A stretch of DNA of 59,686 nt from Candidatus Nealsonbacteria bacterium (lineage in GTDB: Bacteria > Patescibacteriota > Minisyncoccia > Minisyncoccales > GWA2-38-27): assembly GCA_030616085.1 (NCBI GenBank), contig JAUWYA010000001.1:74692-134377 (forward strand), read 5' to 3'. Below the pieces are notes generated by a model. The model made no database searches, was not told the origin of the DNA, and saw nothing but the letters and a program-made list of their open reading frames with translations. Positions 9,974 through 34,898 of the stretch are shown here, in pieces (the first letter of the stretch is position 1; each line of letters opens with the position of its first letter). The translations under genes and the position numbers were made by a program.

Positions 9974-9978
9974 TTTAT

Positions 9979-11118: not shown

Positions 11119-11133
11119 TTCTCAAATCCTGTT

Positions 11134-15379: not shown

Positions 15380-16417
15380 ATGATTCAGGAAAAAAGATTC
15401 TCAAAAGAATTTCAAAAAATATCTAATCTTCAAGTTTCAGCTAATTCTTTGTTGAATTGGGTATTTCAAAAAAAATCACTATCTCTAAACAAAGAGCCCG
15501 ATTATGTTATGGATTTATTTAGAGTCCAGTTATTGAATACATATTGTTTATATTCCAGAAGAAAACAATGTCAAAGTATTCGTTTTAAAAAATTTATTAT
15601 TCCTAAAGGCAAAAAGTACGAACCTATTAGTCGGCTTGTCAAAAGTTTTCGCAATAAATCAGAATATTTTGTAGATGTTATTATTTATGGGAGTATTGCA
15701 GATAATACAGTGGTCAAAAATTGGAGTGATGTAGATATTTTTGCTATTGTCAAAGAAAAGGTTTTTGAAAATACCGATAGTTTTTTAACTCTGAGAATTT
15801 TTTTGACTTCAATTGAAGATGAGTTATATAAATTCGATTTTTTTCAACATCACGGAATTCAGTTTATAAACGAAGCTGATTTAAGATTTTATCCAGAATA
15901 CTTTTTACCTTTGGAAGTTTTAAGATTTGGTAAATCACTAATTAACAAAAATAAGATAGAGTTTTTTATTCGTGATTCTATTCCAGAAAAAGAAAATCGT
16001 TTTTATAAAATAGCTGATTTGCTTAATCAATCTTCTAAAACCGGAATTTTAAAGCATCATGCCCGCAATGGAGTTTATTTGGAAGAAAATTTTAAAAACA
16101 AAGAAGATAATTTTTATCAATTAAAGTATTTTATCTCTTTAATCTTGCTTCTTCCTGGTTTATTTGTTGAGTTAGTTGATAAACCCATTTATAAAAAAAA
16201 TTCTTTTGAAAAAATTAAAAGTCACTTCGATGATAAAAAAAATCTGGAAATAATCAACAAATGCGAAAAAATAAGATATTTATTTAAAGATTTAGAGGTT
16301 GTTGATAATACTATTCCAGATAAGGTCGTTGAGATTCTTGGCAATGGCTATTTTAAAAGAGCAAATATTTTGATGAAGAAATTAGTTAAAAGATATGAAA
16401 TATATAAATCTACCTAA
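15380..16417 (+). CDS. hypothetical protein with Pol-beta-superfamily nucleotidyltransferase motif
   Basis: VIIYGSIADNTVVKNWSDVDIFAIV fits the GS-x(9-13)-DxD minimal nucleotidyltransferase signature. The remaining roughly 200 aa are unassigned. Confidence 0.5.
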   Translation: MIQEKRFSKEFQKISNLQVSANSLLNWVFQKKSLSLNKEPDYVMDLFRVQLLNTYCLYSRRKQCQSIRFKKFIIPKGKKYEPISRLVKSFRNKSEYFVDVIIYGSIADNTVVKNWSDVDIFAIVKEKVFENTDSFLTLRIFLTSIEDELYKFDFFQHHGIQFINEADLRFYPEYFLPLEVLRFGKSLINKNKIEFFIRDSIPEKENRFYKIADLLNQSSKTGILKHHARNGVYLEENFKNKEDNFYQLKYFISLILLLPGLFVELVDKPIYKKNSFEKIKSHFDDKKNLEIINKCEKIRYLFKDLEVVDNTIPDKVVEILGNGYFKRANILMKKLVKRYEIYKST

Positions 16418-17411
16418 AAAACTTAACCAAGAGTTTTATCAGAAGTGTAGAATAGAATTGGTTAATCTTTGTCAAGGCAATCCTGATGTTGTTTCTATCT
16501 ATGAGATTGGGACTGTTTTGTATCCGGGAATATCGGATTTGGATCTTATGTTATGTCTCAAGAATAAATTAAATAATGATTTAAATATTGAAGAACAATT
16601 TAGTCAAGAGCTTAATTATATTACTTCGGGACATGTATTAAAAATAAATGAAGAGAATTTTAGAGATATGTGTATTATTGATGATCGTCCCGACCTGAAA
16701 TCAAAATATCTTTACGGAAGGAAATTTCAATTTTCAAATTTTGATGATAAAACATTTGAAATCTGTCGGATATTGGATTGGCTGCCAGTGTTGGTGTTTA
16801 CTTTGTTAAGGTCGAGAAACTCCAGTCAAGTAGATGTTATAAAAAAGCTTTTGATTATGAGCTCTGTTGTCATAAGTTTGGACAAAGTGTCAAAATTAAC
16901 AGGTAATTTTCAATTTTGTGAATTCGGAAAAAAAGTTTATAATTTGCGGTCAACTTGGTTCTCAAATAAAAATAGGATTCAAGATTTCGACATTTTATTT
17001 GTGGAGTCTGTAGTTCAAGTTCTCAAGGCTATAAAATTTATAGATGAATATTTAATCAAAAACAGATATATTTTTGGGGATTTAGGTAAAGTAGGAACGT
17101 TTCTTAAAATTCCCCGGGGACCGGAGTTTGTATTTGGTGACGAAACAGAAATAGAGAAAGGAAGAATAAGGTTACCAAAATCATTTTTCTTTTTTCTAGC
17201 CTCTCAAGCAGTTTCAAGCAATGGATTTATATCTAACCACCTTAAAAATTCATTCGATATAGAATTAACCGATTTGGATATAAATGACCACATTGATGAT
17301 AAATTAAAAAAGACCATAAAAAAAAGAATTGAGTACTGCAATAGTTTAGCTGATTTTTTTAGAGCAAATAACCTAAAGACTGGTTTATTTAAATATGGTT
17401 GGTTTATATAA
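16395..17411 (+). CDS. hypothetical protein, degenerate nucleotidyltransferase-fold paralog of 15380-16417
   Basis: VSIYEIGTVLYPGISDLDLMLCL aligns with the GS...DxD region of the upstream protein, and the length is similar (338 aa). It overlaps the upstream gene by 23 nt. Confidence 0.45.
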   Translation: MKYINLPKKLNQEFYQKCRIELVNLCQGNPDVVSIYEIGTVLYPGISDLDLMLCLKNKLNNDLNIEEQFSQELNYITSGHVLKINEENFRDMCIIDDRPDLKSKYLYGRKFQFSNFDDKTFEICRILDWLPVLVFTLLRSRNSSQVDVIKKLLIMSSVVISLDKVSKLTGNFQFCEFGKKVYNLRSTWFSNKNRIQDFDILFVESVVQVLKAIKFIDEYLIKNRYIFGDLGKVGTFLKIPRGPEFVFGDETEIEKGRIRLPKSFFFFLASQAVSSNGFISNHLKNSFDIELTDLDINDHIDDKLKKTIKKRIEYCNSLADFFRANNLKTGLFKYGWFI

Positions 17412-17432
17412 AACCCAAGATAAAATATAATT

Positions 17433-19388
17433 ATGATAAAAAACAAAAAAATAATCGCCATAATTCCAGCTAGAGGCGGTTCAAAGACGATTCCTCATAA
17501 AAATATTGTTGATTTAGACGGATATCCTCTTATTGCTTATTCAATAATAGTCGTCCGATTATCAAAATTGATTGACAGAGTAATCGTCAGTACTGACAGC
17601 CAGGAAATTGCTGAAATTGCAAAAAAGTATGGAGCAGAAGTTCCTTTTTTGCGTCCTAAAGAGTATGCTGGTGATTTGTCTCCGGATATAGAATTTTTCA
17701 AACATGCAATTGACTGGTTTCGTCAGAACGAAGGATATGAACCCGAATACTTTGTTCATGTCCGTCCCACAACGCCTCTTAGAGAACCGGAAATAGTTGA
17801 TCAAGCAATTGAAAAAATTCTTAATAATAAAGAAGCAACTTCTCTTCGTTCTGCTCATGAGCTAAGAGAACCCCCTCATAAGTTTTTCAAAATTGAAAAC
17901 AATTTCTTTAAAGGATTATTTCCAGAAGACAAAAGGCCAGGATACCATAATTTGCCTAGACAGGTTTTCCCATCTGCTTATCATCCAAATGGCTATGTAG
18001 ATGTTGTTAAGAGCCAGACAATTATAAATACTGACACTCTCCATGGAACAAAAATATTGCCATTTATAACTCCTGAGATTATAGAATTAGATCGTCCTGA
18101 AGATTTAAATTATATAAAGTTTGACTTAAATAGAAAAAAGTATAAAATAAAAGAGTTTTTGAAAAATAATTTTAATAAAATGACAAAATATAAAATTTCT
18201 TATATTCCAAAAGAAGTTCCAGAGATTAAGACAAGATTTAGACAGATAAAAACTAAAATTCCTGTTCTTGAGTCTGTTTCTTTGCTTCAAGATATGCAGA
18301 AATATGAGGTAAGTGATATGTGTATCCATGAATTGCCTATAGTTTGGGACAGAGCAGATGATTTTCAAGTTTATGATAGGTGGGGAAATAAATGGATAGA
18401 TTTCACTTCTGGTATATTTGTGGCTAATGTTGGTCATTGCGCAAAGGAAGTAAGTGCTGCCATTGTAAAAAAAGTTGATAATAAATTGATACATTCCTAT
18501 GTTTTCCCTAATGATTCGCGTGTAAAATTAGCAAAGAAATTATGTAAAATTACCCAGATGGATAAAACATTACTTGTTGTTACTGGTTCGGAAGCCAATG
18601 ATGCTGCAATACAGATGATGCAACGAAACAGAAAAGGGAAAATATTATCAATAGACGGGGCTTATTATGGTGGCACTACAGCCTGTAGATTACTTTCAAA
18701 GAATGTAATTGATGAATTAATGAACCCCGACAAAATTAATCCTACTGAAATTGCAGGTGTTTTCTTGCAAACTTTCCGAGGACGAGATGCAAAATTTATG
18801 CCTTATGATTGGATTAGGACTTGGTGTAAATGGGCTCAAGAGAATGATATCCCAGTTGGTTTTGACGAAATGCAGTCTGGATTTGGCAGAACAGGCAAAT
18901 GGTTTGGCTATCAAAATTATGATGTGCAGCCAGATTTTATTACTGTTGGCAAAGCTCTTGGTGGTGGATTACCTATCAGCGCTGTTATCGGCAGAAAGAA
19001 ACTGTTAGAATTAAGCGATGATCTTTGGTCTACTCATACAGGAAATCCAATATGTTGCGCTGCTGCCTTAGCCTCGTTAGAAATTATAGAAAATCAAAAG
19101 TTAGTAGAAAAAACCGCTGCCAGAACTGATTGGTTTGGTCAGTTGTTGAAAGAAACATTTCCTAATCATAAAATATACGGTCAAGGAATGATTTGGGCAT
19201 TATATACTGGTGATGCAAAACTAACACAAAAAATTATAGAAAAATGCGCAGAAAAGGGATTGCTTTTAGTTAGCACATACGGGCCTGCAATCAAGATCGG
19301 ACCGCCTTTAACCATACCTGATGAAGCCCTGATTGAGGGAATTAAAGTAATAGAGGAGTCTTTTGAAGAAGTAATAAATGAAATATAA
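17433..19388 (+). CDS. fusion protein: N-terminal acylneuraminate (CMP-sugar) cytidylyltransferase-family domain + C-terminal class-III PLP aminotransferase
   Basis: N-terminal IAIIPARGGSKTIPHKNI (NeuA/CMP-transferase motif). C-terminal FDEMQSGFGRTGKWFGY and TVGKALGGGLP (class III aminotransferase Lys motif). One uninterrupted 651-aa ORF. Confidence 0.8.
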   Translation: MIKNKKIIAIIPARGGSKTIPHKNIVDLDGYPLIAYSIIVVRLSKLIDRVIVSTDSQEIAEIAKKYGAEVPFLRPKEYAGDLSPDIEFFKHAIDWFRQNEGYEPEYFVHVRPTTPLREPEIVDQAIEKILNNKEATSLRSAHELREPPHKFFKIENNFFKGLFPEDKRPGYHNLPRQVFPSAYHPNGYVDVVKSQTIINTDTLHGTKILPFITPEIIELDRPEDLNYIKFDLNRKKYKIKEFLKNNFNKMTKYKISYIPKEVPEIKTRFRQIKTKIPVLESVSLLQDMQKYEVSDMCIHELPIVWDRADDFQVYDRWGNKWIDFTSGIFVANVGHCAKEVSAAIVKKVDNKLIHSYVFPNDSRVKLAKKLCKITQMDKTLLVVTGSEANDAAIQMMQRNRKGKILSIDGAYYGGTTACRLLSKNVIDELMNPDKINPTEIAGVFLQTFRGRDAKFMPYDWIRTWCKWAQENDIPVGFDEMQSGFGRTGKWFGYQNYDVQPDFITVGKALGGGLPISAVIGRKKLLELSDDLWSTHTGNPICCAAALASLEIIENQKLVEKTAARTDWFGQLLKETFPNHKIYGQGMIWALYTGDAKLTQKIIEKCAEKGLLLVSTYGPAIKIGPPLTIPDEALIEGIKVIEESFEEVINEI

Positions 19389-19390
19389 AA

Positions 19391-19415
19391 AAAGGTGAGA
19401 TTTTTTCTCACCTTT
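19391..19415. terminator. bidirectional terminator hairpin between convergent genes
   Basis: AAAGGTGAGA-TTTTT-TCTCACCTTT, a 10-bp stem with an A-run before and a T-run after, so it reads as hairpin plus U-tract on both strands. Confidence 0.65.
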
Positions 19416-19430
19416 GAGCGATATTTCTTT

Positions 19431-20315
19431 TTACCTAAAGAGAATAAGGAACGCTCCAATAATCCCGACCAGAAAACCCATCCACTCTTTTTTAGAAAGT
19501 TCTTTCCTTTCTTTAAGAATAAACCAACCAAAGAAAACTGGAATTATCGTAATACCCAATCCGTGTAAAGGAGTAGCTAAGCTTATAGGCGCTCCCAGTT
19601 GAAAGGTCCAATAGAGGGCAAAGAGATTTACAATCATGCTAAAACTTGAAGCCATAATTAATAAAATTATTTTTCTTGGAATTTGAAAAACTTGGATCAT
19701 TTTTTGTCTTTCCAGCTTAAGAATTATTATAGATCCTAAAAAAGCTCCGCAATACCAGCCCATAAGGAATATCTCTTGAGCAATGTCTTTAGAAGACAAT
19801 TTCATTAGGAAGATAACTGTCCCTAATATTGTAACCATTCCTAAGGTAAATAAGAACCATTTCTTATTGAGGATTTCCTTACTTTTATCTTGACTTTTCG
19901 TCGGTGATTGGAAAAGCCACATTGCCAAGAAACATAATCCTATTCCTAAAGTTGATTGAAAATTCCAAAGTTTGATTTCTGCTAAAAAAATTATCGCTAG
20001 GACAATAGGCACCATACTTATTAGCGGAAGAAATAACGCGGTTTTACTAAGACCTGCTTGGCATTCAAGCGCTCGCCATTGGAAGTAAACACCAAAGGAA
20101 GCTGTAAACCCCATAAGCCCCATTAAAATAATAATAGGATTTAGAGGAGCTTTTCCTAAAAAGAAAAAATAAACAACTGCCAGTAAGGCACAAAATAGAA
20201 ACTGGTAAAAAACCCCTATAGATTTTTTAGCCAGCTTATTAGAAAGTACCTTATTCAAAATTATAATAGAGCTGTTCATAATTATAACCATGCAGAGAGC
20301 ATATTTCCAAGACAT
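19431..20315 (-). CDS. EamA/DMT-superfamily polytopic membrane transporter
   Basis: 294 aa, about 10 hydrophobic segments, two-repeat organisation typical of drug/metabolite transporters. One of only two minus-strand genes. Confidence 0.65.
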   Translation of the reverse strand: MSWKYALCMVIIMNSSIIILNKVLSNKLAKKSIGVFYQFLFCALLAVVYFFFLGKAPLNPIIILMGLMGFTASFGVYFQWRALECQAGLSKTALFLPLISMVPIVLAIIFLAEIKLWNFQSTLGIGLCFLAMWLFQSPTKSQDKSKEILNKKWFLFTLGMVTILGTVIFLMKLSSKDIAQEIFLMGWYCGAFLGSIIILKLERQKMIQVFQIPRKIILLIMASSFSMIVNLFALYWTFQLGAPISLATPLHGLGITIIPVFFGWFILKERKELSKKEWMGFLVGIIGAFLILFR

Positions 20316-20427
20316 TTTTTCTCCTTTCAGAATAGTCCAATATGTTTATGTTAAAGTACTAATTTTTATATCTTATTATTCTAAAATAAAATAGAATAAA
20401 AGTCAATACAAAGTTTTAGTTAGAGAA

Positions 20428-20456
20428 GTCAAAAGGGGTCAGGAATCTTTTAAAAT
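20428..20456 (+). promoter_or_regulatory. candidate sigma70-type promoter for the 20483 operon
   Basis: GTCAAA-N17-TAAAAT ends 26 nt before the ATG at 20483. The -35 is weak. Confidence 0.3.
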
Positions 20457-20482
20457 AAAAAATTAAAAATTAATCTTGAATT

Positions 20483-20929
20483 ATGAAAAACATACGTCAT
20501 ACAGGCATTGTTATAGGTAATTTAGAAAAATCTCTTCATTTTTACAGAGATGTTTTAGGATTAAAGGTCCAAAGAGACATGTTGGAACAGGGTGAGTTTA
20601 TTGATAATATTTCTGATCTTAAAGATGTTAAAGTCAGAACAATTAAAATGTCAGCTGATGATGGCAATCTTGTAGAACTTTTATGGTATAAATCTCATCC
20701 AAGGAAAAGCAAGGGAGCAAAAGAGATTTGTACGACAGGAGTTTCCCATATTGCTTTTACAGTAGAAGATATTGATTATGAGTATAAAAGATTAAAGGAA
20801 AAAGGTGTTAAATTTCATTGTCCGCCCCAGATTTCTCCTGACGGCAGGGCAAAAGTTACCTTTTGCCAAGACCCGGAGGGAAATCTTATAGAATTAGTTG
20901 AAGAACTTAATGAATTTATGAAAAAATAA
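20483..20929 (+). CDS. VOC (glyoxalase/bleomycin-resistance/dioxygenase) family protein
   Basis: IRHTGIVIGNLEKSLHFYRDVLGL and GVSHIAF...DPEGNLIEL are paired beta-alpha-beta-beta-beta module signatures. Confidence 0.75.
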   Translation: MKNIRHTGIVIGNLEKSLHFYRDVLGLKVQRDMLEQGEFIDNISDLKDVKVRTIKMSADDGNLVELLWYKSHPRKSKGAKEICTTGVSHIAFTVEDIDYEYKRLKEKGVKFHCPPQISPDGRAKVTFCQDPEGNLIELVEELNEFMKK

Positions 20930-20932
20930 TCC

Positions 20933-21505
20933 ATGTTGTACGAATTTATAAAAAGAATTAAATTTTGGCGCAAAGAAGATAGGATAAGCCCGGAAAATCC
21001 TTTAAATCATTTGCGTTTGTATTTTCATGGCTCAATGACCAAGTTGTGTAAAAGGAAGTTTAAGCATTTTGGTACGGACGCAGAGCTAAGAACCCATGCT
21101 TTTGTAAGCGGGTGTTCAAATATAAGCATTGGGGATAGAGTTATAATAAGACCAAATTCAATTTTTTTTACTAAATCATTTGATCACAAAAATAGACAAG
21201 GTTCAATTACCATAGAAGATGATGTTTTATTGGGTCCAGCTATTCATATTTTTACTAACAGACACAGATTTACAGGATTAGATAAGCCAATTATTGATCA
21301 AGGATCAGAAAAATCTAAAGATGTCGTTATAAAAAAAGGAGCATGGGTTGGAGCAGGTTCAACTATTTTGCCCGGCGTTACCATAGGCAAGTACGCGGTT
21401 GTTGGGGCAGGCAGTGTAGTAACCAAAGACATTCCTGACCAAACATTAGCTGTTGGAGTTCCGGCTCGAGTTATTAGGGATTTGAAAAATCCAGAATCAA
21501 TTTAA
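20933..21505 (+). CDS. left-handed beta-helix (hexapeptide-repeat) acyl/acetyltransferase
   Basis: GAWVGAGSTILPGVTIGKYAVVGAGSVVTKDIP hexapeptide repeats. Confidence 0.8.
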   Translation: MLYEFIKRIKFWRKEDRISPENPLNHLRLYFHGSMTKLCKRKFKHFGTDAELRTHAFVSGCSNISIGDRVIIRPNSIFFTKSFDHKNRQGSITIEDDVLLGPAIHIFTNRHRFTGLDKPIIDQGSEKSKDVVIKKGAWVGAGSTILPGVTIGKYAVVGAGSVVTKDIPDQTLAVGVPARVIRDLKNPESI

Positions 21506-21507
21506 AC

Positions 21508-22254
21508 ATGAATTACTTAGAAAAATTTTCACTTTTAAATAAAATTGCTATAGTTACTGGCGCTGCACAAGGTAATGGTTTTGCTATTGCGAAAGGATTG
21601 TTAGGCGCGGGAGCAACAGTTTATTTTATTGATATTTTAAAACAGGAAATTTCAGACCCAAAAGCAAAATATATTATAGCAGATGTTATTAAAAAAGAAG
21701 ATCTGGAAAGGGTAGTTAACCAGGTATATCAAGAACAAGGCAGAATAGATATTTTAGTTAATAATGCTGGCATTACTATATCAGAGCCAAGTGAATCTTA
21801 CAGCCAGGAGAGTTGGGATAAAACATACAGAGTAAATTTAAAAGCAGTTTTTCAACTAAGCCAAATGGTGGCTAAACATATGATAGGACAAAAATCCGGA
21901 GTAATTATCAATATTACAAGTCTGGGTGCCGAACAAGGATTTCCTAATAATCCTGCTTATGTTGCTTTTAAAGGGGGATTGAAACAACTTAGTAAAGCAT
22001 TGGCTAATGATTGGGCAAAATATAACATTAGAGTTAATAATTTAATGCCGGGCTACATTAAAACAAATATGACCCAAAAGAGCTGGAACGATCCGGTTTT
22101 AAGAACAAAGCGACAAAAGAAAACTATGCTGGGAAGATGGGGAGAACCGGATGATTTGGTAGGCCCTGCTATATTTCTTGCTTCAGATGCTTCCAGTTAT
22201 ATCACCGGCCATGATTTATATGTAGATGGTGGTTGGTTAGCAAAAGGTCTTTAA
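21508..22254 (+). CDS. classical SDR oxidoreductase (FabG-like)
   Basis: TGAAQGNGFAI, NNAG and YVAFKGG (YxxxK). Confidence 0.8.
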   Translation: MNYLEKFSLLNKIAIVTGAAQGNGFAIAKGLLGAGATVYFIDILKQEISDPKAKYIIADVIKKEDLERVVNQVYQEQGRIDILVNNAGITISEPSESYSQESWDKTYRVNLKAVFQLSQMVAKHMIGQKSGVIINITSLGAEQGFPNNPAYVAFKGGLKQLSKALANDWAKYNIRVNNLMPGYIKTNMTQKSWNDPVLRTKRQKKTMLGRWGEPDDLVGPAIFLASDASSYITGHDLYVDGGWLAKGL

Positions 22255-22284
22255 TATAAAAATAAATTAATAAAAAATATGGAA

Positions 22285-22364
22285 TCCCGTTAGAAATTCT
22301 GTATTAACAGGTTTTTAATCGGGGTATCATATCCAAATAGAATTTATGAAAATTTCTAACGGGG
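22285..22364. repeat. palindromic element, copy 2 (arms TCCCGTTAGAAATT / AATTTCTAACGGGG)
   Basis: 13 perfect bp plus one T:G position. Arms at 22285-22298 and 22351-22364 with a 52-nt spacer. The right arm overlaps codons 2-7 of the annotated NeuB-like ORF. Confidence 0.75.
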
Positions 22365-23245
22365 TGGAACAAAAAAGTAAAAAAATAGTAAAAATTGGAA
22401 ATAAATTAATAGGCGATGAGCAACCAACTTTTATAACCGCAGAAATTGGAATTAATCATAATGGAGATATTGATATTGCCAAGAAATTAATAGATATGGC
22501 GGTTTTTGCCGGTTGTGATGCGGTCAAATTTCAGAAAAGGACTATTGAACTTGTCTATACTCCTGAAGAATTAGCCAGACCAAGAGAAAATCCTTTTGGA
22601 CCGACTAACGGTGACTTGAAAAAAGGACTGGAATTTGGCGAAAAAGAATATCAAGAGATAGATAGATATTGTAAAGAGAAAGGTATAATCTGGTTTGCTT
22701 CTCCCTGGGATATGAAAAGTGTTGACTTCTTGGAAAAATTTGATGTTCCTTGTTATAAAATAGCCTCTGCTTGTTTAACAGATGATGAATTAGTGAAACA
22801 GATTAAATCTAAAGGCAAGCCAATTATTCTATCTACTGGTATGAGCACTATAGAACAAATTAAGCATGTGGTTAATGTGTTGGGTGAAGAAAATTTAATT
22901 TTGCTTCATTGTACCTCAACCTATCCTTCAAAACTTGAGGAATTAAATTTGAATGTTGTTCCTTGGCTAAGAAAAACCTTTAATTACCCGATTGGTTATA
23001 GTGGTCACGGAATCGGTGTTGTTGGATCTGTGATAGCTGTAACCTTGGGAGCTTGTGTTGTGGAAAGGCATATTACTTTAGATAGAGCAATGTGGGGAAG
23101 CGATCAGGCAGCAAGTTTAGAACCTAATGGTTTGAATAGGGCAGTAAGGGATATTAGAAATCTGCCCAAGTGTTTAGGAGACGGCCAAAAGAGAGTTTAT
23201 GAAAGCGAAAAACCAATACTTGAGAAATTAAGAAAAGTTAAATAA
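22346..23245 (+). CDS. NeuB-family sialic-acid-type synthase (PEP-dependent ulosonic acid synthase)
   Basis: PTFITAEIGINHNGDIDIAKKLIDMA..GCDAVKFQ is the NeuB/PseI/LegI N-terminal signature. At 299 aa it is shorter than typical NeuB, with a reduced SAF-like tail. The start is uncertain: ATG at 22346 or in-frame GTG at 22364. Confidence 0.75.
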   Translation: MKISNGVEQKSKKIVKIGNKLIGDEQPTFITAEIGINHNGDIDIAKKLIDMAVFAGCDAVKFQKRTIELVYTPEELARPRENPFGPTNGDLKKGLEFGEKEYQEIDRYCKEKGIIWFASPWDMKSVDFLEKFDVPCYKIASACLTDDELVKQIKSKGKPIILSTGMSTIEQIKHVVNVLGEENLILLHCTSTYPSKLEELNLNVVPWLRKTFNYPIGYSGHGIGVVGSVIAVTLGACVVERHITLDRAMWGSDQAASLEPNGLNRAVRDIRNLPKCLGDGQKRVYESEKPILEKLRKVK

Positions 23246-23247
23246 GT

Positions 23248-25365
23248 ATGAAGAAACAAATAGGTCTTGAATTAGAGGAACATCTAAAAGTAATAAAAGA
23301 GTTAGGATCAGACAAAATAGAAAAAGCCGTTCAGATGATTGTTGATTGTTATAAGAATAATGGCAAAGTTGTTTTATTTGGTAACGGGGGTTCAGCTGCT
23401 GATGCTCAGCATATAGCAGCAGAATTTGTTGGAGAATATAAATTAGAGAGAAAAAGCTTACCTGCTATAGCTTTGACAACAAATACCTCAATAATGAGCG
23501 CTGTTGGAAATGATTATGGTTTTGAACGAGTTTTTGAAAGACAAATTGAAAGCATGGTTGAAAGCAAAGATATAGTTATTGGAATTAGCACAAGCGGGAA
23601 TTCAGAAAATGTAATAAAAGGAATATTAAAAGCTAAAGAAAAAGGAGCTAAAACTATTGGTTTTACTGGAAGGAGTGGCGGTCGGTTGAAAAACGTTGTT
23701 GATATTTTACTGAATGTTTCTTCAGATAGTACCCCAAGAATTCAAGAAGCTCATATTACAATAGGGCATATCATGTGTGGCTTAGTAGAAAAAGAGCTTT
23801 TTGAGAATGAAAACTTTAAATGGAAAGTTTCAAAAAATAAAATTACTATGTCGTCCCAAAAATTTAAAACACTATTTATCTACTCCAATCCTAGAATCAT
23901 GTCGCTGGTGCCGCCAGTGGTTGCTCTTCTTTATAGGATTTTATCAGATGCAGGGATTAAAATGAATCTTTTTGACACTAGTCTTTATGATGCCAGCAAG
24001 GGCATGGTTAACGCAGATGATTACGATAAGATGATAATGGCAGTTAAGCCATATCAAAAAGAATTAGAAGAAAAAGTAGGCGAGCTTAATAGTATTGATA
24101 ATTTAGTACCTGACCTTCAAGAAAAGGTTCGCTCTTTTTCACCTGATTTAATAATGGCTACTGTCACAGAAAGCACCTTTTTATACACAATAGATTTGCT
24201 TAAAAAGATTAAGCATTTTAATGTTCCAGTTTTGTTAGGCGGGGTATTCGCAACTTTCGCAAGCGATTTAGTAATAAAATATGATGAGATTGATATGCTT
24301 TGTATTGGAGAGGCAGAGAATATAATTGTTAGCCTTTGTGAATGTCTTGCAAAAGGCAAAGATCCTTCAGGCATGCAGAATTTATGGGTTAAGAAAAAAG
24401 ATGGAAGTATTGTTAAAGGTCCTCTTGCTCCACCGGTAGATATTAATAAAAATCCTCTGCCAGATATGTCTATTTTTGACGACAGAAGATTTTACCGGGC
24501 AATGGCAGGCAAGATTTATCGTATGTTTCCGGTTGAAACTCACCGTGGCTGTCCTCATACTTGCGGTTTTTGCAATTCTCCTTTGCAAAATAAACTTTAT
24601 CAAGAAAAAACCAATTCACACTATTTTAGAGCCAAATCCATTCCTTTGGTTATGAAGGAGATACGTTATTACGTTGAGAACTTTAACCCAGAATATTTCT
24701 TTTTCTGGGCTGACAATTTTTTCTTTTATCCTGAAAAAGAAATAGATGAATTCTGCGAAGCCTATTCAGAGATAAAAATACCATTTTTTGTCCAGTCACA
24801 CCCCAATCAATTATCAGAGCATAAAATAAAGAGATTGAAAGAGGTTGGTTTGCATCGGGTTACTATTGGTATTGAACATGGCAACGAAGAATTCAGAAGG
24901 AATGTTATTAATCGTTTTTATTCCAACGAACAGCTTTTAGAGGGAGTGAGAATTCTCCACAAGTATAATGTTCCTCTTGGTGCCAATAATATCTGTGGTT
25001 TTCCCACGGAAACTCCAGAACTTTTCATGGATACCGTAGAATTAAATAGAAAATTAAATGCTGACAATAATTCTTGCTCAATCTTTACGCCTTTCTACGG
25101 CACTCCTTTAAGAGTATTGGCTGTTGAAAAGGGCTATCTCAAAAACCCGGATATTATTGCTCCAACCAATACTGAAAGATCTATTTTGGATATGCCTCAA
25201 TTCACCAAAGAGCAGATTTCAGGCAAATCAAGGACTTTTAATCTCTATGTCCATTTTCCTAAAAATCGCTGGCCGGAAATAGAAAAGGCCGAAAAAATGA
25301 CTCCTGAAGGCAATAAAATTTGGAATGAGTTACGTCAAGAATATCAAAAAAATACGCTAACTTAG
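23248..25365 (+). CDS. fusion protein: N-terminal SIS (GmhA-like sugar-phosphate isomerase) domain + B12-binding-domain radical SAM enzyme
   Basis: N-terminal VVLFGNGGSAADAQHIAAEF (GmhA-type SIS). Residues from about 200 onward show a B12-binding-like Rossmann segment, then HRGCPHTCGFCNS (CX3CX2C). Single 705-aa ORF. Confidence 0.8.
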   Translation: MKKQIGLELEEHLKVIKELGSDKIEKAVQMIVDCYKNNGKVVLFGNGGSAADAQHIAAEFVGEYKLERKSLPAIALTTNTSIMSAVGNDYGFERVFERQIESMVESKDIVIGISTSGNSENVIKGILKAKEKGAKTIGFTGRSGGRLKNVVDILLNVSSDSTPRIQEAHITIGHIMCGLVEKELFENENFKWKVSKNKITMSSQKFKTLFIYSNPRIMSLVPPVVALLYRILSDAGIKMNLFDTSLYDASKGMVNADDYDKMIMAVKPYQKELEEKVGELNSIDNLVPDLQEKVRSFSPDLIMATVTESTFLYTIDLLKKIKHFNVPVLLGGVFATFASDLVIKYDEIDMLCIGEAENIIVSLCECLAKGKDPSGMQNLWVKKKDGSIVKGPLAPPVDINKNPLPDMSIFDDRRFYRAMAGKIYRMFPVETHRGCPHTCGFCNSPLQNKLYQEKTNSHYFRAKSIPLVMKEIRYYVENFNPEYFFFWADNFFFYPEKEIDEFCEAYSEIKIPFFVQSHPNQLSEHKIKRLKEVGLHRVTIGIEHGNEEFRRNVINRFYSNEQLLEGVRILHKYNVPLGANNICGFPTETPELFMDTVELNRKLNADNNSCSIFTPFYGTPLRVLAVEKGYLKNPDIIAPTNTERSILDMPQFTKEQISGKSRTFNLYVHFPKNRWPEIEKAEKMTPEGNKIWNELRQEYQKNTLT

Positions 25366-25372
25366 AGGAAAT

Positions 25373-26803
25373 ATGAATCAAAAAGGAAAAGTATTATTTA
25401 TTATTCATGATGTCTATCAAGATGACAATGATTTTGCATTAGGAATAGGTTATCTTGCGGCTGTCTTGAAAAAAGAAGGAAATGACGTAAAGGTTTGTTG
25501 CCAAGATATTTTTCATTATTCAAACGAGGAACTGGCTAAGCTTTTTTTAAAAAACCAGAATTATGATTTAATCAGTATTGGTTTTTTAGCAGCAAGATTT
25601 AGAGAAACAATATTGGACTTATGTACCACAGTAAATAAATTTAAGAAGAATGCTTGGTTGGTTTTGGGTGGACACGGTCCGTCGTCTATACCAAAATATG
25701 TATTAAAAGAAACTAATGCTGATATAGCGGTAATAGGAGAAGCCGAAGAAACAATTATTGAATTATTAAAATGCAAGCTTGAAAATAGAGATTTATCTCA
25801 AATAGAAGGTATTGCTTATTGTAATAATGGCGATATCGTGATTAATAAAAGAAGAGAACCGATTTGGGATTTAGATTCTATTCCTTTCCCAGAATGGTCT
25901 CTGTTTCCAATGGAGAGATATACAACCTGTTTACAGCTTTATCATATGTCTAAAGATGACAAAGCCTTAGGCATATCAACAAGCAGAGGATGTGTTAATC
26001 GATGTAACTTTTGTTATCGGATGGAAAAAGGCATCCGTTTTAGGAGTATAGAAAATATCATTGAGGAAATAAAATTTTTAAAAGAGAAATACAGAATAAC
26101 TTATTTTCAAATCCTTGATGAACTGTTTATTTTTTCTAAAAAAAGAATTTTTGAGTTTTACGAAGCATTGAGAAAAAATAATTTAAAAATAAAATTTAGT
26201 TGTAATGCTAGGGTAGATATTTTTGATGAGGAAATTGCTGTCTGTTTAAAAAAAAGTGGCTGTAATTTTCTAAACTTTGGAATGGAGTCTTCAGACCAGA
26301 ATGTCTTAAATTTAATGAAGAAAAATACCACGGTTGAGCAGAATATTCAAGCAGCCGAAATAACCGGAAAAATAGGAATTGGATTGGGCTTAAATTTTAT
26401 TTGGGGCAATAAAGGAGATACCGAGAAGTCATTAAGGAATAATGTAGAGTTAATTAAAAAATATAATAGTTATGACGAAATTAGAACCATTAGGCCAGTT
26501 ACTCCTTATCCTGGGAGCGAGTTGTATTATGAGGCAATAGAGAGGGGCTTGTTGTCCGGGCCAGAGGACTTTTTTAACAAGTTTAGAAATTCAGATTTAT
26601 TAACCGTTAATTTTACTGACATCCCGGAAGAAGAATTTTATAAATTACTATTTGGAGCTAACAAAGAATTGATAATTAATCATTTTGCTCATACCACAAA
26701 GAATATGAATAGTGCTAATAAATTAATAAAAGGTTTTTACGACTTATATTTTAAGAGTAAAGTTAGTTTTAGAGGAGCGCGGCATTATAATAAAAAGAAT
26801 TAA
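25373..26803 (+). CDS. B12-binding-domain radical SAM enzyme (class B-like)
   Basis: N-terminal cobalamin-binding-like domain (VLFIIHD...LGIGYLAAVLKKEG) and SRGCVNRCNFCY. Confidence 0.8.
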   Translation: MNQKGKVLFIIHDVYQDDNDFALGIGYLAAVLKKEGNDVKVCCQDIFHYSNEELAKLFLKNQNYDLISIGFLAARFRETILDLCTTVNKFKKNAWLVLGGHGPSSIPKYVLKETNADIAVIGEAEETIIELLKCKLENRDLSQIEGIAYCNNGDIVINKRREPIWDLDSIPFPEWSLFPMERYTTCLQLYHMSKDDKALGISTSRGCVNRCNFCYRMEKGIRFRSIENIIEEIKFLKEKYRITYFQILDELFIFSKKRIFEFYEALRKNNLKIKFSCNARVDIFDEEIAVCLKKSGCNFLNFGMESSDQNVLNLMKKNTTVEQNIQAAEITGKIGIGLGLNFIWGNKGDTEKSLRNNVELIKKYNSYDEIRTIRPVTPYPGSELYYEAIERGLLSGPEDFFNKFRNSDLLTVNFTDIPEEEFYKLLFGANKELIINHFAHTTKNMNSANKLIKGFYDLYFKSKVSFRGARHYNKKN

Positions 26804-26830
26804 TTAAAGCCTACGAGGCTAGAGAAAAAG

Positions 26831-28141
26831 ATGAAAAATTTATCTTATTATAACAAACTTGGCTTTGAAGACGCATTTTCTTGGAAACAAAAGGATTCTC
26901 CTGGATTTTTTTTGCTTGATGGCGAGTTTAAATCAGTAGAAAGTTTGCAGCTGAGCATATTACAAGGTGCCAAAAAAATAATGCAAGGATATAATAAATA
27001 CAAATTCGCTCTAAATTTTTATGACAGGTTTTTTCAGAAATTATGTTTTAAAAATAATAAAAAAGGCAAGAAGATTTTGTTTCACAGCATGAGATACTCC
27101 GACCTTATTTTGGAAAGTAAAAAACATTATCCTTTAGGATTGATGATAGAGGGAAAGAAAGATAGGTGGTTTTCATTGAAGAATTTTACTGGATATCTAA
27201 ATACGAGCGATTTATATCAATATGTTTATTATTATATGAAAGAAAAAAACATAGATTATCTTTATCAGTTAGTTGAAAAACTGGAAGAAAAATTAGAAGT
27301 TTTGAGACCAAATTATGTAGTATTATGGAGTAATGGCTTTCCAATTGAAAAAGCTATTGTATTGGTATGCAAAAAATTTGGCATTTCTACCTTATTAATT
27401 CAACACGGAGCATTTCAATCAAGCACATTTTCGTCTATGGGTAGCGAAAAAATGGCTGTTGATTATCTTTTAGTCTGGGGGCAATATTTTAAAGATTTAT
27501 ATGTCAAAGAAAATATAAGAAAGCCAGAAGAAATTTATATTTTAGGATATCCTTATAAAATTTGTAAACCTAAATTAAAAAAGAAGAAAAAATATACTGT
27601 TTGTTATTTAGGCCATCCTTTTGAAAAAGATAATAAAGAACTACTAAATCTGAAATTAAAAACCTTAACTGAATTAAATAAAATATGCGAAAAATTGAAC
27701 ATTGAATTTTTTTGTCGTCTTCATCCTCGAGACAACAGAAATCTTTTAAAAAGCAAGGCTCCAGACATAAGATTTGCTCCGAAAAATGAAAGATTATTTG
27801 ATACTATTGCTAAAGGAGATATTTTTATTTCTTTTAGTTCTACTTCTCTAATAGAAGCAGCAATGAGAGGTAAGATTAGTTTGCAATTAATGAATTATCC
27901 TTTGCATAGAGATAATCTTGAAAAATTAGGAGCTTGCACTAGAAGTTTTCAGAACATTGAACAATTAAGTGAATATCTTCAAAAAGTAATTAGAGATTCT
28001 CACTTGAAAGAAAATAAATTTGAGTTTAATAATTATTATATTGAAACTAGATATAATCCGGGCCAACGATTTGCAGAGATATTAAACCAAATTGAGAATA
28101 AACAAACTAAGGAGCTTAGCTCCTTGAACACTTTTTTATGA
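26831..28141 (+). CDS. hypothetical protein, putative glycosyl/ulosonyl transferase (paralog of 54159-55760)
   Basis: Shares ...VCKKFGISTLLIQHGAF...DYLLVWGQYFKDLY with the 54159 protein (...ACKLNKIKTYGFQHGQF...DKLFVWNKYWKKVL). I cannot name the family. Confidence 0.4.
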   Translation: MKNLSYYNKLGFEDAFSWKQKDSPGFFLLDGEFKSVESLQLSILQGAKKIMQGYNKYKFALNFYDRFFQKLCFKNNKKGKKILFHSMRYSDLILESKKHYPLGLMIEGKKDRWFSLKNFTGYLNTSDLYQYVYYYMKEKNIDYLYQLVEKLEEKLEVLRPNYVVLWSNGFPIEKAIVLVCKKFGISTLLIQHGAFQSSTFSSMGSEKMAVDYLLVWGQYFKDLYVKENIRKPEEIYILGYPYKICKPKLKKKKKYTVCYLGHPFEKDNKELLNLKLKTLTELNKICEKLNIEFFCRLHPRDNRNLLKSKAPDIRFAPKNERLFDTIAKGDIFISFSSTSLIEAAMRGKISLQLMNYPLHRDNLEKLGACTRSFQNIEQLSEYLQKVIRDSHLKENKFEFNNYYIETRYNPGQRFAEILNQIENKQTKELSSLNTFL

Positions 28142-29652
28142 AATGGGTTTTTTTAATAAATAACGCGCCGTTTTTAATGGAAGTTCTGGGAGAGTTTGCT
28201 TGTCAGATAGAGGAAGAAGGGGATGAGTGCATCGGGATTATAAGCGGCAAGATTGCCGAGTATAAAAAAAAGAAGTATTTTCCGAATAAGATGAGATTTA
28301 TTTCTAAAATTGATTGGTGTATTAGAAACTTTCAGAGAAATAAAAAAGAATTTGGCAATTTATCGTGGAGAAAAGTCTTTTTTGTCTTTGACAGGCTTAA
28401 ACGATCGGACTTTAGTTATGATAATTCATTAGACATGGTTTCGCAGGTTTATCAATTTTTTGAGTTTATTTTTAGAAAAGAAAGGCCTGATGTGATAATC
28501 AGTGAACCGTGCTCGGGTTTATTTAATGGGATTGCTTATTATTTCTGCCAAATGAATAAAGTGCCTTATTTTGGTTTAACGAGCTCTAGATTTAGAAATA
28601 GGATAGATGTTTATGATTTGGAAACTACTTGTTCAGAATATAGAAAAACTTTTAGAGAAATAAACCCCGTTAGAGATTCTAGGGACAGAGAAAAGATAGA
28701 GAAAGGAGGTATCTCTAACGGGGTAAATAATAATGATATTTCTGACAAAGAAAAGCAGTTTGCAAAGAATTTTATTGAAAAATTTATATCTCATAAAGAG
28801 CTGCCTTCTTATATGGAGTGCCAGAAAATTTATTTTACCCAGTTTGGTTTTATTAAACATTATCTGAGAAGAATAAAAGAACTCGGCCGTCCTTATTTTC
28901 AATATTTTTTAAATAGGAAACATTTTAAAAAGTTTGATTACGAGAGCGAAAATGTTTTCAAAAACGGTTTTCGGGCGCCTTTTAAGGCTGAAAGACGAAA
29001 GTTTAGAATTTTGTCCCAAAAGAATATTTTTAGCCGTTTAAGTAACCTAGATAACAATCAGAAATTTTTTCTGTTTCCTTTACAGCTTCAGCCAGAGGCC
29101 TCAACTTCTGTTTTAGCCACTTATTTTTGCGACCAGTTAAACACTATAAAAAATACAGCATTTGCCTTGCCTCTTCTCTATAAATTATATATAAAAGAGC
29201 ATCCTTCCGCTGTTGGCACTAAACCGAGAAGTTTCTATAAAGAGTTAGAAAAACTTCCTAATGTGGTTTTAATTTCTGCCCATGAAAATGTGGAAAATCT
29301 TATTAAAAAGTCATCAGGAGTTATTACTTTAACCAACACTATTGGAATAGAAGCAGCCCTTGTTGGCAAACCAGCATATGTTCTAGGAAATGTATTTTAT
29401 TCTTATCATCCTTTATGTAGAGAAGTGAAAAGTTTTGAAGAACTGAAAAATAGAATAGAGATGGATTTAATTAATAAGCCAAATACAGAAAACTTAGAAG
29501 ACATTAATTGTCGTTTTATTACTTCTTATTTCAGAAATACAATCCCCGGCATTATTGATGAAGCCGTTCTTAAAAATGACACAAATAATTATCAGTTTAT
29601 GTATAAAAATATAAAGAGATTGTATCAGGAGATAAACAAAAATGCAAAATAA
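28138..29652 (+). CDS. capsule-polysaccharide-biosynthesis (KpsC/KpsS, Capsule_synth-like) family protein
   Basis: FFLFPLQLQPEASTSV resembles the LPLQV..DSQ motif of KpsS/KpsC-type beta-Kdo transferases, and the length and context fit. The assignment is from motif memory only. Confidence 0.5.
   Translation: MKWVFLINNAPFLMEVLGEFACQIEEEGDECIGIISGKIAEYKKKKYFPNKMRFISKIDWCIRNFQRNKKEFGNLSWRKVFFVFDRLKRSDFSYDNSLDMVSQVYQFFEFIFRKERPDVIISEPCSGLFNGIAYYFCQMNKVPYFGLTSSRFRNRIDVYDLETTCSEYRKTFREINPVRDSRDREKIEKGGISNGVNNNDISDKEKQFAKNFIEKFISHKELPSYMECQKIYFTQFGFIKHYLRRIKELGRPYFQYFLNRKHFKKFDYESENVFKNGFRAPFKAERRKFRILSQKNIFSRLSNLDNNQKFFLFPLQLQPEASTSVLATYFCDQLNTIKNTAFALPLLYKLYIKEHPSAVGTKPRSFYKELEKLPNVVLISAHENVENLIKKSSGVITLTNTIGIEAALVGKPAYVLGNVFYSYHPLCREVKSFEELKNRIEMDLINKPNTENLEDINCRFITSYFRNTIPGIIDEAVLKNDTNNYQFMYKNIKRLYQEINKNAK
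28664..28724. repeat. palindromic element, copy 3, embedded in-frame in a CDS (arms ACCCCGTTAGAGAT / ATCTCTAACGGGGT)
   Basis: Perfect 14-bp arms at 28664-28677 and 28711-28724 with a 33-nt spacer. The segment translates as ...NPVRDSRDREKIEKGGISNGV... inside ORF 28138-29652. Confidence 0.75.
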
Positions 29653-34081: not shown

Positions 34082-34896
34082 AAATTATTATTAAACCAAA
34101 AAAAGGATTAGCTAATTTAGATTTTAAGGAACTATGGTTATATAGGGAGCTTTTTTACTTTTTTGCCTGGCGGGACATTAAATTGCGCTATAAACAAACT
34201 ATTTTTGGGATTGCCTGGGCAGTGATGAGGCCCTTTATCACTATGGTGGTGTTTACTGTTGTTTTTGGTAAGTTAGCTAATATGCCTTCAGATAATATTC
34301 CTTATCCTATTTTTGTTTATGCCGGGCTTTTACTCTGGAATATTTTTTCAAATTCTCTCAGTGATTCTAGTCAAAGTTTGATGAGGAATATTAATATTAT
34401 TCAAAAAGTTTATGTGCCCAAAATAATTGTACCGACCGCTTCTATTATCGTGAGTTTGGTTGATTTTTTGTTCGCTGCTTTGATTCTTGGAGGAATTCTT
34501 ATTTATTATGATTTTATGCCTCATTTTCAAGGATTACTTCTTTTGCCTCTGCTTTTACCGATAGTTATTTTTGCCAGTTTGGGTTTAGGTTGGTTTTTTG
34601 CTGCTGTTAATGTTAAATATCGCGATGTTCGTTATGCTTTGCCTTTTTTTATTCAATTACTAATATTTGTAACGCCGGTTATTTATCCAGTAAGTATTGT
34701 TCCCCAAAAATATCAATGGATTTTGGCTTTAAATCCAATGACTGGAGTAATAGAGACCTTTAAAGCAGGTTTTTTAGGCACTACTTCAATAAATTGGCTG
34801 ACTTTGGGAATTTCAGCTGTTGTTAGTATTATATTTTTGATTTTTGGTTTATTATATTTTCTTAAAACTGAAAAAACTTTCGCTGACGTAATTTAA
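34078..34896 (+). CDS. wzm: ABC-2 type polysaccharide exporter permease
   Basis: YRELFYFFAWRDIKLRYKQTIFGIAWAVMRP is the typical N-terminal signature of Wzm/TagG/KpsM, with 6 TM segments. Confidence 0.85.
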   Translation: MKIIIKPKKGLANLDFKELWLYRELFYFFAWRDIKLRYKQTIFGIAWAVMRPFITMVVFTVVFGKLANMPSDNIPYPIFVYAGLLLWNIFSNSLSDSSQSLMRNINIIQKVYVPKIIVPTASIIVSLVDFLFAALILGGILIYYDFMPHFQGLLLLPLLLPIVIFASLGLGWFFAAVNVKYRDVRYALPFFIQLLIFVTPVIYPVSIVPQKYQWILALNPMTGVIETFKAGFLGTTSINWLTLGISAVVSIIFLIFGLLYFLKTEKTFADVI

Positions 34897-34898
34897 CG

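Follow-up and report, generated by a model that had tools for sequence, protein, structure and literature searches.

We analysed a 59.7-kb window of a Candidatus Nealsonbacteria contig (the whole stretch of DNA, to which all coordinates below refer), in which the region at ~15380-29652 is predicted from its protein families to be one variable cassette of a large surface glycan locus that makes, activates and transfers a non-canonical 3-deoxy-2-ulosonic acid. The cassette includes a NeuB-family synthase without a SAF domain (here NeuB_A), a 705-amino-acid (aa) open reading frame (ORF) at 23248-25365 that joins a GmhA-type SIS isomerase domain to a B12-binding radical S-adenosylmethionine (SAM) enzyme (rSAM1), and a second, separate B12-binding radical SAM enzyme (rSAM2). 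The best overall explanation, which we regard as probable, is that this variable ulosonic-acid cassette combines a core resembling the pathways of Kdo (3-deoxy-D-manno-oct-2-ulosonic acid) and Kdn (3-deoxy-D-glycero-D-galacto-nonulosonic acid) with tailoring by B12 radical SAM enzymes, and that the fusion arose through a cassette swap. The SIS::radical-SAM fusion should not serve as evidence for substrate channelling or for a domain architecture that is new; it illustrates how accidental fusions come about when glycan loci exchange cassettes.

Domain structure and database occurrence of the fusion

The ORF scan returned, all on the + strand, NeuB_A (299 aa), the 705-aa ORF, rSAM2 (476 aa) and two putative transferases of 436 and 504 aa, with the boundaries given in Table 1. 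These coordinates and the domain calls made in an earlier, sequence-only reading of the window (NeuB, SIS::B12-radical-SAM, a second B12 radical SAM enzyme and a KpsC/KpsS-like protein) were confirmed by Pfam and NCBIfam searches. Both motifs quoted in that reading, NGGSAADAQHIAAEF and HRGCPHTCGFC, occur in the 705-aa translation, and its calls for the upstream genes (VOC, hexapeptide acetyltransferase, SDR and CTP_transf_3::Aminotran_3) agree with the profile searches. The 705-aa ORF is uninterrupted in the contig sequence as given. Pfam detects SIS_2 at aa 10-141 (108 bits), B12-binding PF02310 (34.5 bits, cut-off 32.1) and Radical_SAM PF04055 (85 bits). The SIS domain (aa ~10-188) scores 197 bits against the GmhA model TIGR00441 (cut-off 209.45) and 185 bits against 2xbl, the structure of B. 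pseudomallei GmhA, the aligned block being gapless and the H/E and Q/H motifs aligned.

Is this combination of domains a conserved architecture? Protein searches covered 5.8 billion protein clusters (top 120 per query) and, in an exhaustive HMMER scan, 1.84 billion representatives (best 150). With the 705-aa query, the top 120 cluster matches were all standalone B12 radical SAM enzymes of 473-537 aa, at most 83% identical, that cover only aa ~201-705 and have no SIS domain. With aa 1-200 as the query, the top 120 were all standalone GmhA-like proteins, at most 87% identical and almost all 187-229 aa long (one 148-aa fragment); the standalone relatives in the alignment of the fused SIS domain are all 187-195 aa. 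The HMMER scan contained no protein matching both halves among its best 150, so that the search for this architecture proposed in the sequence-only reading produced no second instance among the matches considered. A degenerate DNA pattern of the junction (SIS C-terminus, 45-75 nt, rSAM1 N-terminus) gave 0 matches in the Joint Genome Institute (JGI) metagenomes, a collection that may simply not sample this lineage. The SIS::radical-SAM fusion thus appears to be a singleton and not a conserved architecture.

Three long, distant rSAM1 homologues from the HMMER scan (P0275, P0291 and P0325, 637-910 aa; proteins of relatives are labelled P0xxx and their loci L001-L176) were considered as SIS fusions and rejected, as they carry inteins instead. 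Their insertions lie inside the radical SAM enzyme; an intein splicing domain was matched in P0275 and P0325 (in P0275 together with HNH and NUMOD3), and P0291 matches only a LAGLIDADG homing-endonuclease domain.

Origin of the fusion

The sequence around the junction shows how the fusion was formed. In alignment A1, standalone SIS homologues end with ELFENEKNK and a stop (...GLVEKELFENEKNK, stop), and the window at the same place reads ELFENENFKW KVSKNKIT M (...GLVEKELFENENFK-W-KVSKNKIT-MSSQKF...). The SIS stop codon is TAA in four relatives; in a gapless alignment with L010, L011 and L175, its place is taken by TGG at 23821-23823, and the ~25 nt after this TGG match the beginning of the gene that follows SIS in the same three loci, a KdsC-like HAD phosphatase gene whose 5' end overlaps the SIS 3' end. 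The rSAM1 half begins at its native methionine, M201, matching MSQKFKTLFIY of the standalone L001 protein; standalone relatives of rSAM1 (502-510 aa) start at the methionine equivalent to ATG 23848.

At the nucleotide level, the window is a mosaic in blastn comparisons: 22365-23845 is closest to L011 (82% identity), 23853-25362 to L001 (85%), and 25372-26796 to L176 (85%) and L175 (79%). Homology at the left breakpoint stops at 23845 against L011 and at 23847 against L175, and the sequence shared there is only ~3-5 nt long. Both breakpoints coincide with ORF boundaries, with homology starting again at the start codon of rSAM2. In L175 the gene order is GFO-SDR-NeuB-SIS-phosphatase (Hydrolase_3)-rSAM2, followed by a gene without an assigned family. 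No Hydrolase_3/KdsC-like homologue was found anywhere in the 59.7-kb window, in which the isomerase, the synthase and the CMP (cytidine monophosphate)-transferase are present, whereas L010, L011 and L175 have all parts. The ancestral cassette qualifies as a Kdo/Kdn-type sugar-phosphate set; the window copy does not.

According to this DNA comparison, in a presumed ancestral NeuB-SIS-phosphatase-rSAM2 cassette, arranged as in L175, the body of the phosphatase gene was swapped for the rSAM1 gene of a different NeuB/CMP-transferase cassette of the kind seen in L001 and L005. The SIS stop codon changed to TGG, with a 9-codon remnant in frame with rSAM1's own ATG. The fusion is thus a side effect, specific to this lineage, of a cassette swap in which the pathway phosphatase was lost as well. 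Both halves look intact and under purifying selection: dN/dS (the ratio of nonsynonymous to synonymous substitution rates) is 0.09-0.18 for NeuB, SIS, rSAM1 and rSAM2 against their nearest relatives, a value that averages the whole divergence and not the time since the swap.

A different account of the same junction is that it is an artefact, produced by a chimeric assembly of two populations at 23845-23853 or by base-call errors that deleted the stop. Such an origin would agree with the mosaic contig, whose segments are closest to different contigs, with the lack of any independent copy of the junction among the sequences searched, and with a second end-to-start fusion in the module, CTP_transf_3::Aminotran_3, which a 1-nt homopolymer error could explain. 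However, the ~3-5 nt shared at the breakpoint are far too short for an assembler join, the coincidence of the breakpoints with ORF boundaries and the resumption of homology at the rSAM2 start are typical of real glycan-cassette exchange, and neither flank is identical to any known contig. A homopolymer frameshift at the SIS-rSAM1 junction was rejected on the gapless alignment to L010, L011 and L175, and a simple sequencing error is unlikely because the loss of the stop took two base changes within a single codon and no indel. The ORF is indeed split in related genomes, and the cause is the cassette swap with stop loss and not an obvious frameshift error. An artefactual origin is, in our judgement, very improbable.

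The CTP_transf_3::Aminotran_3 ORF (17433-19388) corresponds to two separate genes in L011 and L012 (72% and 82% identical). The aminotransferase's own ATG lies at 18180, and the window lacks 10 nt, including the TAA stop, compared with L011/L012; at the junction (TTTTAATAAAATG) an out-of-frame TAATAA lies beside a T4 run, and a 1-nt homopolymer error could also produce the fusion. As to translation signals, a Shine-Dalgarno-like motif is found no more than 25 nt upstream of 10 of the 52 gene starts in the window. The idea that rSAM1 lost its Shine-Dalgarno site and was rescued by read-through was rejected as uninformative at this frequency, though L001 has GAGGAG upstream.

In the sequence-only reading, the fusion was taken to imply substrate channelling, that is, a purpose-built bifunctional enzyme delivering a freshly isomerised sugar phosphate to radical chemistry. 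The uninterrupted ORF with both halves intact is compatible with this, as are the two substitutions of the stop loss (TAA to TGG), which might reflect selection, and a SIS gene located directly 5' of an rSAM1-family gene in a Rhodospirillales metagenome-assembled genome (MAG; L030). The remaining evidence argues otherwise. The fusion is a singleton among the best matches of both large protein searches, all relatives being standalone; its linker is a relic of another gene, the phosphatase; its radical SAM half comes from a cassette type normally without SIS (present in only 9 of 80 loci); in relatives, this SIS is naturally fused to a phosphatase (P0385); and pathway logic puts NeuB between the isomerase and any tailoring of a ulosonate. 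We therefore do not uphold the channelling claim and consider a channelling enzyme quite unlikely.

It is also conceivable that the chimeric cassette is a variant that was damaged recently, has no function or is in decay, the swap having deleted the phosphatase and fused two genes. This would fit the absence of a KdsC-like homologue from the 59.7 kb, the separation of rSAM1 from its usual NeuB_B partner and the occurrence of two unusual fusions in one module. On the other side, no module gene has a frameshift or a premature stop, and dN/dS is 0.09-0.18, though averaged over the whole divergence; moreover, sugar phosphatases are often redundant, and the Kdn pathway of P. parvum works without a recognisable dedicated one (PMC6200933). 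We hold decay to be unlikely.

NeuB_A and its genomic partners

NeuB_A matches PF03102 with 272 bits (cut-off 22.1) over profile positions 1-241 and stays below the equivalog cut-offs of both the Neu5Ac (N-acetylneuraminic acid) synthase model TIGR03569 (262 vs 399.65 bits) and the pseudaminic acid synthase model TIGR03586 (226 vs 340.25 bits). The Pfam search of its 299 aa gave no match to the SAF domain (PF08666), and its closest PDB match is 6ncs, a short NeuB of 290 aa. GYSGH and ERHITLD of NeuB_A align with GYSDH and EKHYTVD of 6ncs and with the same motifs of PseI 8h2c, and AEIGINHNGD, which contains the AE..NH motif, is also aligned; the aligned histidines of these motifs we take to be metal ligands. 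NeuB_A is 82-84% identical to its homologues in L010/L011 and 81% to that in L176, and the family is large and well conserved, with more than 594 relatives in the JGI metagenomes. Thus, NeuB_A can be classed as a diverged, SAF-less member of the NeuB family. Environmental clades of SAF-less NeuBs that have no assigned function are described (PMC8208679).

The genomic partners of this family were counted in 63 metagenome loci that had 61-80% identity to NeuB_A and enough downstream sequence. The gene directly 3' encodes a KdsC-like phosphatase in 42 of the 63 and a SIS protein in three. The order NeuB-SIS-phosphatase, with overlapping genes, occurs in L010, L011, L012 and L175. Fusions found in relatives include CTP_transf_3::Hydrolase_3 (L013 307-1512), NeuB joined to a cupin similar to mannose-6-phosphate isomerase/lyxose isomerase (L014 3970-5517) and SIS::Hydrolase_3 (P0385); for this SIS type, the phosphatase fusions are SIS::Hydrolase_3 and HAD::SIS. 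In placing the isomerase, the synthase, the phosphatase and the activating enzyme in one pathway, these fusions are much more telling than the SIS::radical-SAM fusion of the window.

The same data bear on the possibility that the synthase makes an ordinary acid of the Neu5Ac, legionaminic (Leg) or pseudaminic (Pse) type from precursors made elsewhere, the GmhA-type isomerase and the radical SAM enzymes serving other glycan sugars. Glycan loci mix pathways freely, the window holds other sugar modules (DegT, epimerases/dehydratases, C-methyltransferases), and the NeuB catalytic motifs are conserved. Yet the synthase is without a SAF domain and falls far short of the equivalog cut-offs for NeuB and PseI, a KdsC-like phosphatase is the usual gene directly 3' of its relatives (SIS and then phosphatase in L010, L011 and L175), no NeuC/LegG/PseG-type epimerase is present in the window, and rSAM1 goes together with CTP_transf_3 and NeuB across phyla. 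An ordinary nonulosonic acid is, in view of this evidence, improbable. The statement in the sequence-only reading that this is not a canonical Neu/Pse/Leg cluster is therefore supported by the low-scoring, SAF-less NeuB and by the ties of its relatives to a GmhA-type isomerase and a KdsC-like phosphatase. As to its companion statement, that the canonical accessory genes are absent, no Epimerase_2 (NeuC/LegG/PseG type) was found in any window ORF of at least 120 aa; DegT-type aminotransferase and SDR dehydratase genes are present elsewhere in the window.

Two families of B12-binding radical SAM enzymes

The CxxxCxxC motif of rSAM1 (C235/C239/C242) is invariant in the 22 sequences of alignment A3. 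rSAM2 matches B12-binding PF02310 with 39.1 bits (cut-off 32.1) and PF04055 with 70 bits. PDB sequence searches with rSAM1 and rSAM2 gave remote matches only, of at most 43-74 bits, and both proteins lie far below every NCBIfam cut-off. The AlphaFold (AF2) model of rSAM1 (predicted local distance difference test, pLDDT, 92) has a class-B radical SAM fold, and its nearest PDB structures are TsrM, MgmA, AprD4, OxsB, CysS and TokK, with template-modelling (TM) scores of ~0.6. Because these nearest folds are mostly methylases, with non-methylases included, C-methylation would be the most likely chemistry of both radical SAM enzymes.

The rSAM1 family has 357 relatives among 185,579 species representatives, and its holders include Pelagibacteraceae, Nitrospina, Saccharibacteria and other members of the Candidate Phyla Radiation (CPR), Omnitrophota, Planctomycetia, Methanoperedens and Thaumarchaeota. 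Within 10 kb of rSAM1 in the 80 best loci from named genomes, a CTP_transf_3 homologue occurs in 57 (SAR11, Nitrospina, CPR bacteria and archaea among them), NeuB in 33, SIS in nine and a KdsC-like phosphatase in two. Unsupervised clustering of the neighbours of rSAM1 loci ranked CTP_transf_3 first (56/87), Epimerase second (34/87) and NeuB third (30/87), followed by an unannotated ~630-aa family that is possibly LIC12162-like (25/87), Radical-SAM/SPASM (23/87) and a Zn-ribbon methyltransferase (23/87). The combination of rSAM1 with NeuB/CTP_transf_3 is also seen in Desulfobaccales and Acidobacteria. rSAM2, for its part, follows NeuB-SIS-phosphatase in L175 and NeuB-..-CTP_transf_3 in L176.

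The rSAM1 family is not always located in a glycan locus, because the homologue at L002 10001-11515 (P0005), 78% identical to the window copy, has housekeeping neighbours: a Gmad2-domain gene on one side and acetyl-CoA synthetase on the other, with genes for ribosomal proteins nearby; neither NeuB nor CTP_transf_3 was found within 10 kb of it.

No literature was found that connects radical SAM enzymes with the biosynthesis of nonulosonic or ulosonic acids (including NeuB, sialic acid synthase, Pse, Leg and CMP-Kdo), nor any described chemistry for the association of radical SAM enzymes with NeuB and CMP-ulosonate synthetases.

Proposed pathway

The core pathway was assembled from protein families and conserved gene order. 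The GmhA-type isomerase would convert a ketose phosphate to a manno-configured aldose phosphate, most likely sedoheptulose-7-phosphate to D-glycero-D-manno-heptose-7-phosphate, and the SAF-less NeuB would condense the aldose phosphate with phosphoenolpyruvate (PEP). The KdsC-like phosphatase, present in relatives only, would take off the terminal phosphate, and CTP_transf_3 would form the CMP-sugar. SDR, class III aminotransferase and hexapeptide acetyltransferase may carry out oxidation, amination (transamination) and N-acetylation, the two class-B radical SAM enzymes would add a radical modification, and the KpsC/S-like and BFO_1060-like proteins would transfer the sugar. SDR, class III aminotransferase and VOC are common to the L011-type cassette and the window (76-87% identity); the hexapeptide acetyltransferase occurs in the window only.

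The simplest candidate for the aldose is D-glycero-D-manno-heptose-7-phosphate, which would give a C10 acid, because the isomerase is closely homologous to true phosphoheptose isomerases and no nucleoside diphosphate (NDP)-heptose genes stand alongside it. Neither a GHMP or HldE kinase nor GmhB was found in the cassette or in L010, L011 and L175, where the neighbours are NeuB and the KdsC-like phosphatase. Mannose-6-phosphate, giving Kdn, is the conservative alternative substrate.

Several points weigh against this reconstruction. A SIS gene is found in only 11 of 34 long NeuB_A loci and in only 9 of the 80 rSAM1 loci, so that the GmhA-type isomerase could instead feed heptose to another glycan sugar. 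The phosphatase needed by a sugar-phosphate route is missing from the window, and the chimeric cassette may be impaired; the window copy may even be functionally compromised. The change of TAA to TGG takes two substitutions, and read-through could have been selected, which would give the fusion some functional value. The 'ancestral' arrangement rests on about five related loci, none closer than ~85% nucleotide identity. Finally, it is from the genes that we infer which aldose is used, where and of what kind the radical modification is, and in which order the steps run.

With these reservations, the region is plausibly an uncharacterised relative of Kdo/Kdn-type CMP-ulosonate pathways with B12 radical SAM tailoring. 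The non-canonical, radical-modified ulosonic acid suggested in the sequence-only reading is likewise plausible, as each radical SAM family recurs next to NeuB and CMP-transferase genes in further genomes, while its product and radical chemistry are only predicted. A more specific proposal joins several of these steps: the core would make a C10 3-deoxy-2-ulosonic acid from D-glycero-D-manno-heptose-7-phosphate and PEP (Kdn plus one CHOH; free acid ~298 Da), and the rSAM1 and rSAM2 families would be C-methylases, or enzymes of another radical tailoring, acting on CMP-linked or free ulosonic acids, together defining an unrecognised sugar class. We put this forward tentatively and regard it, taken as a whole, as rather doubtful.

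Gene layout of the cassette and other modules of the window

The window is a single-strand cell-surface glycan locus of ~30% GC (guanine and cytosine) with an ABC-2 exporter at 34078-36212. The features of the cassette are presented in Table 1.

Table 1 Features of the cassette and of the fusion junction, in window coordinates
Feature	Position	Strand	Basis
NTP_transf_2-like protein (345 aa) and 338-aa protein, no assigned family	15380..17411	+	82-86% identical to the L176 pair
CTP_transf_3 (PseF-like CMP-ulosonate synthetase)::class III aminotransferase (Aminotran_3) fusion	17433..19388	+	Pfam, NCBIfam
EamA-like membrane protein, weak call	19431..20315	-	PF00892 24.9 bits, below cut-off
VOC/glyoxalase-fold protein	20483..20929	+	PF00903 78 bits; 87% identical to VOC gene of the L011 cassette
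Hexapeptide-repeat acetyltransferase	20933..21505	+	PF00132; NCBIfam sugar O/N-acetyltransferase models match below cut-offs
SDR oxidoreductase, KduD/gluconate-5-dehydrogenase-like	21508..22254	+	PF13561 203 bits; 76% identical to L011 SDR directly 5' of NeuB
SAF-less NeuB-family PEP-aldose condensing synthase, NeuB_A	22346..23245	+	PF03102 272 bits
GmhA-type SIS isomerase domain (fusion aa 1-191)	23248..23820	+	TIGR00441 197 bits
Vestigial 5' end (~14 codons, other frame) of KdsC-like phosphatase gene; linker in the SIS frame	23807..23847	+	gapless DNA alignment to L010, L011, L175
TGG (Trp192) where the SIS stop codon TAA of relatives stands	23821..23823	+	protein alignment A1 and DNA alignments
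B12-binding radical SAM enzyme rSAM1 (fusion aa 201-705), native ATG 23848	23848..25365	+	Pfam, standalone relatives
Second B12-binding radical SAM enzyme, rSAM2	25373..26803	+	Pfam; relatives 65-84% identical
Putative surface-glycan transferase, BFO_1060/TIGR04396-like	26831..28141	+	NF046086 59 bits, TIGR04396 37 bits, both below cut-off
KpsC/KpsS-like (Capsule_synth) putative ulosonic-acid transferase	28138..29652	+	PF05159 50.4 bits, cut-off 20

At the 5' end of the cassette, the 345-aa/338-aa pair has its counterpart at 7213-9244 of L176, in the order NeuB-[pair]-CTP_transf_3-rSAM2; because the L176 pair sits between NeuB and CTP_transf_3-rSAM2, this conserved pair probably belongs to the same pathway as the NeuB/rSAM2 module. 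At the 3' end, the product of 26831-28141 had no match in the Pfam search. The Capsule_synth match of the 504-aa product is partial (profile positions 104-275 of 310), and the BFO_1060/TIGR04396 surface-carbohydrate NCBIfam models also match it below their cut-offs; it is 45% identical to the Capsule_synth gene of L005, which lies two genes 3' of the L005 rSAM1-family gene, with NeuB and a methyltransferase between. The Rfam scan of the window detected no RNA family, and hence no cobalamin riboswitch, although there are three B12 radical SAM genes.

Outside the cassette, a short UDPG_MGDP_dh-like protein at 36209-37033 (274 aa, with a partial N-terminal domain and no C-terminal domain) is truncated in appearance. 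It is a real short family and not a truncation, because copies of similar length recur in L176 (86% identity) and in L005 and L011, in many cases close to genes for B12 radical SAM enzymes or epimerases.

A second module resembling keto-acid sugar synthesis occupies 44250-55760. It contains a SIS gene (46565-47185), GFO/IDH/MocA and 2-hydroxyacid dehydrogenase genes, the third B12 radical SAM gene (50162-51574), an HpcH/HpaI aldolase (51593-52363), a methyltransferase and CTP_transf_3 (53395-54162). The standalone SIS protein of this module is 30% identical to the fused SIS domain; the aldolase and CTP_transf_3 pair shares 53-57% identity with genes next to rSAM1-family genes in Desulfobaccales L013, and the pair also occurs in SAR11 L071 and L074. 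A further module, at 3082-12423, resembles branched or C-methyl deoxysugar synthesis, with a thiamine-pyrophosphate (TPP)-dependent acetolactate-synthase-like enzyme, HAD, a weak HpcH-like aldolase, two C-methyltransferases (Methyltransf_14), radical-SAM/SPASM, an epimerase and a DegT aminotransferase.

Significance

The durable lead of this analysis is the pair of conserved B12 radical SAM families that are tied genomically to SAF-less NeuB and CMP-ulosonate synthetases in many phyla, among them abundant lineages of marine waters and groundwater. If the proposed pathway is true, radical C-modification, and possibly a C10 backbone, would join the known repertoire of sialic-acid-like sugars, and many orphan class-B radical SAM enzymes, a large group, would gain a substrate class. 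The surfaces of uncultivated bacteria and archaea (SAR11, Nitrospina, CPR, Omnitrophota, Methanoperedens) would then widely bear radical-modified higher-carbon acidic sugars.

Comparison with known systems

The Kdn-9-phosphate route of Bacteroides thetaiotaomicron, with its synthase, phosphatase and CMP-synthetase, is documented, and the NeuB-family protein BT1714 is the Kdn-9-phosphate synthase (PMC6200933). Like this CMP-Kdn route and the vertebrate Neu5Ac-9-phosphate route, the system described here combines a NeuB-family synthase with a KdsC-type HAD phosphatase (in relatives) and CTP_transf_3. The substrate of the CMP-Kdn route is a phosphorylated manno-configured aldose (PMC6200933), and the genes suggest the same here. 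Unlike that route, the cassette has a NeuB without SAF, an aldose that would come from a GmhA-type SIS isomerase and might therefore be a heptose leading to a C10 product, and no phosphatase in the window; it has in addition an SDR, a class III aminotransferase, an acetyltransferase, a VOC protein and two B12 radical SAM enzymes.

With the Kdo pathway (KdsD, KdsA, KdsC, KdsB) the proposed core shares isomerase, PEP condensation, dephosphorylation and CMP activation, and a Capsule_synth (KpsC/KpsS-like) transferase follows 3'. It differs in that the synthase is of the NeuB family and not KdsA/DAHP-synthase, the isomerase is GmhA-like and not KdsD (SIS+CBS), and the Capsule_synth match is partial.

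Both rSAM1 and rSAM2 resemble those class B radical SAM enzymes whose substrates are sugars or are linked to nucleotides (GenK/GenD1, Fom3 on cytidylyl-2-hydroxyethylphosphonate (HEP), AprD4 and OxsB) in having an N-terminal Rossmann B12 domain and a CxxxCxxC barrel. Unlike these enzymes, to which they are only remotely related in sequence, they presumably act on a ulosonic acid; Fom3 is a precedent for a B12 radical SAM enzyme that methylates a CMP-linked substrate.

In Shewanella, the biosynthesis of Kdo8N (8-amino-3,8-dideoxy-D-manno-octulosonic acid) proceeds by oxidation and then transamination on a 3-deoxy-ulosonic acid, catalysed by the oxidase KdnB, which is similar to iron-containing alcohol dehydrogenases, and the aminotransferase KdnA. 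The SDR and aminotransferase pair of the cassette resembles this step, with the difference that its oxidoreductase is an SDR and its aminotransferase belongs to class III and is fused to the CMP-transferase.

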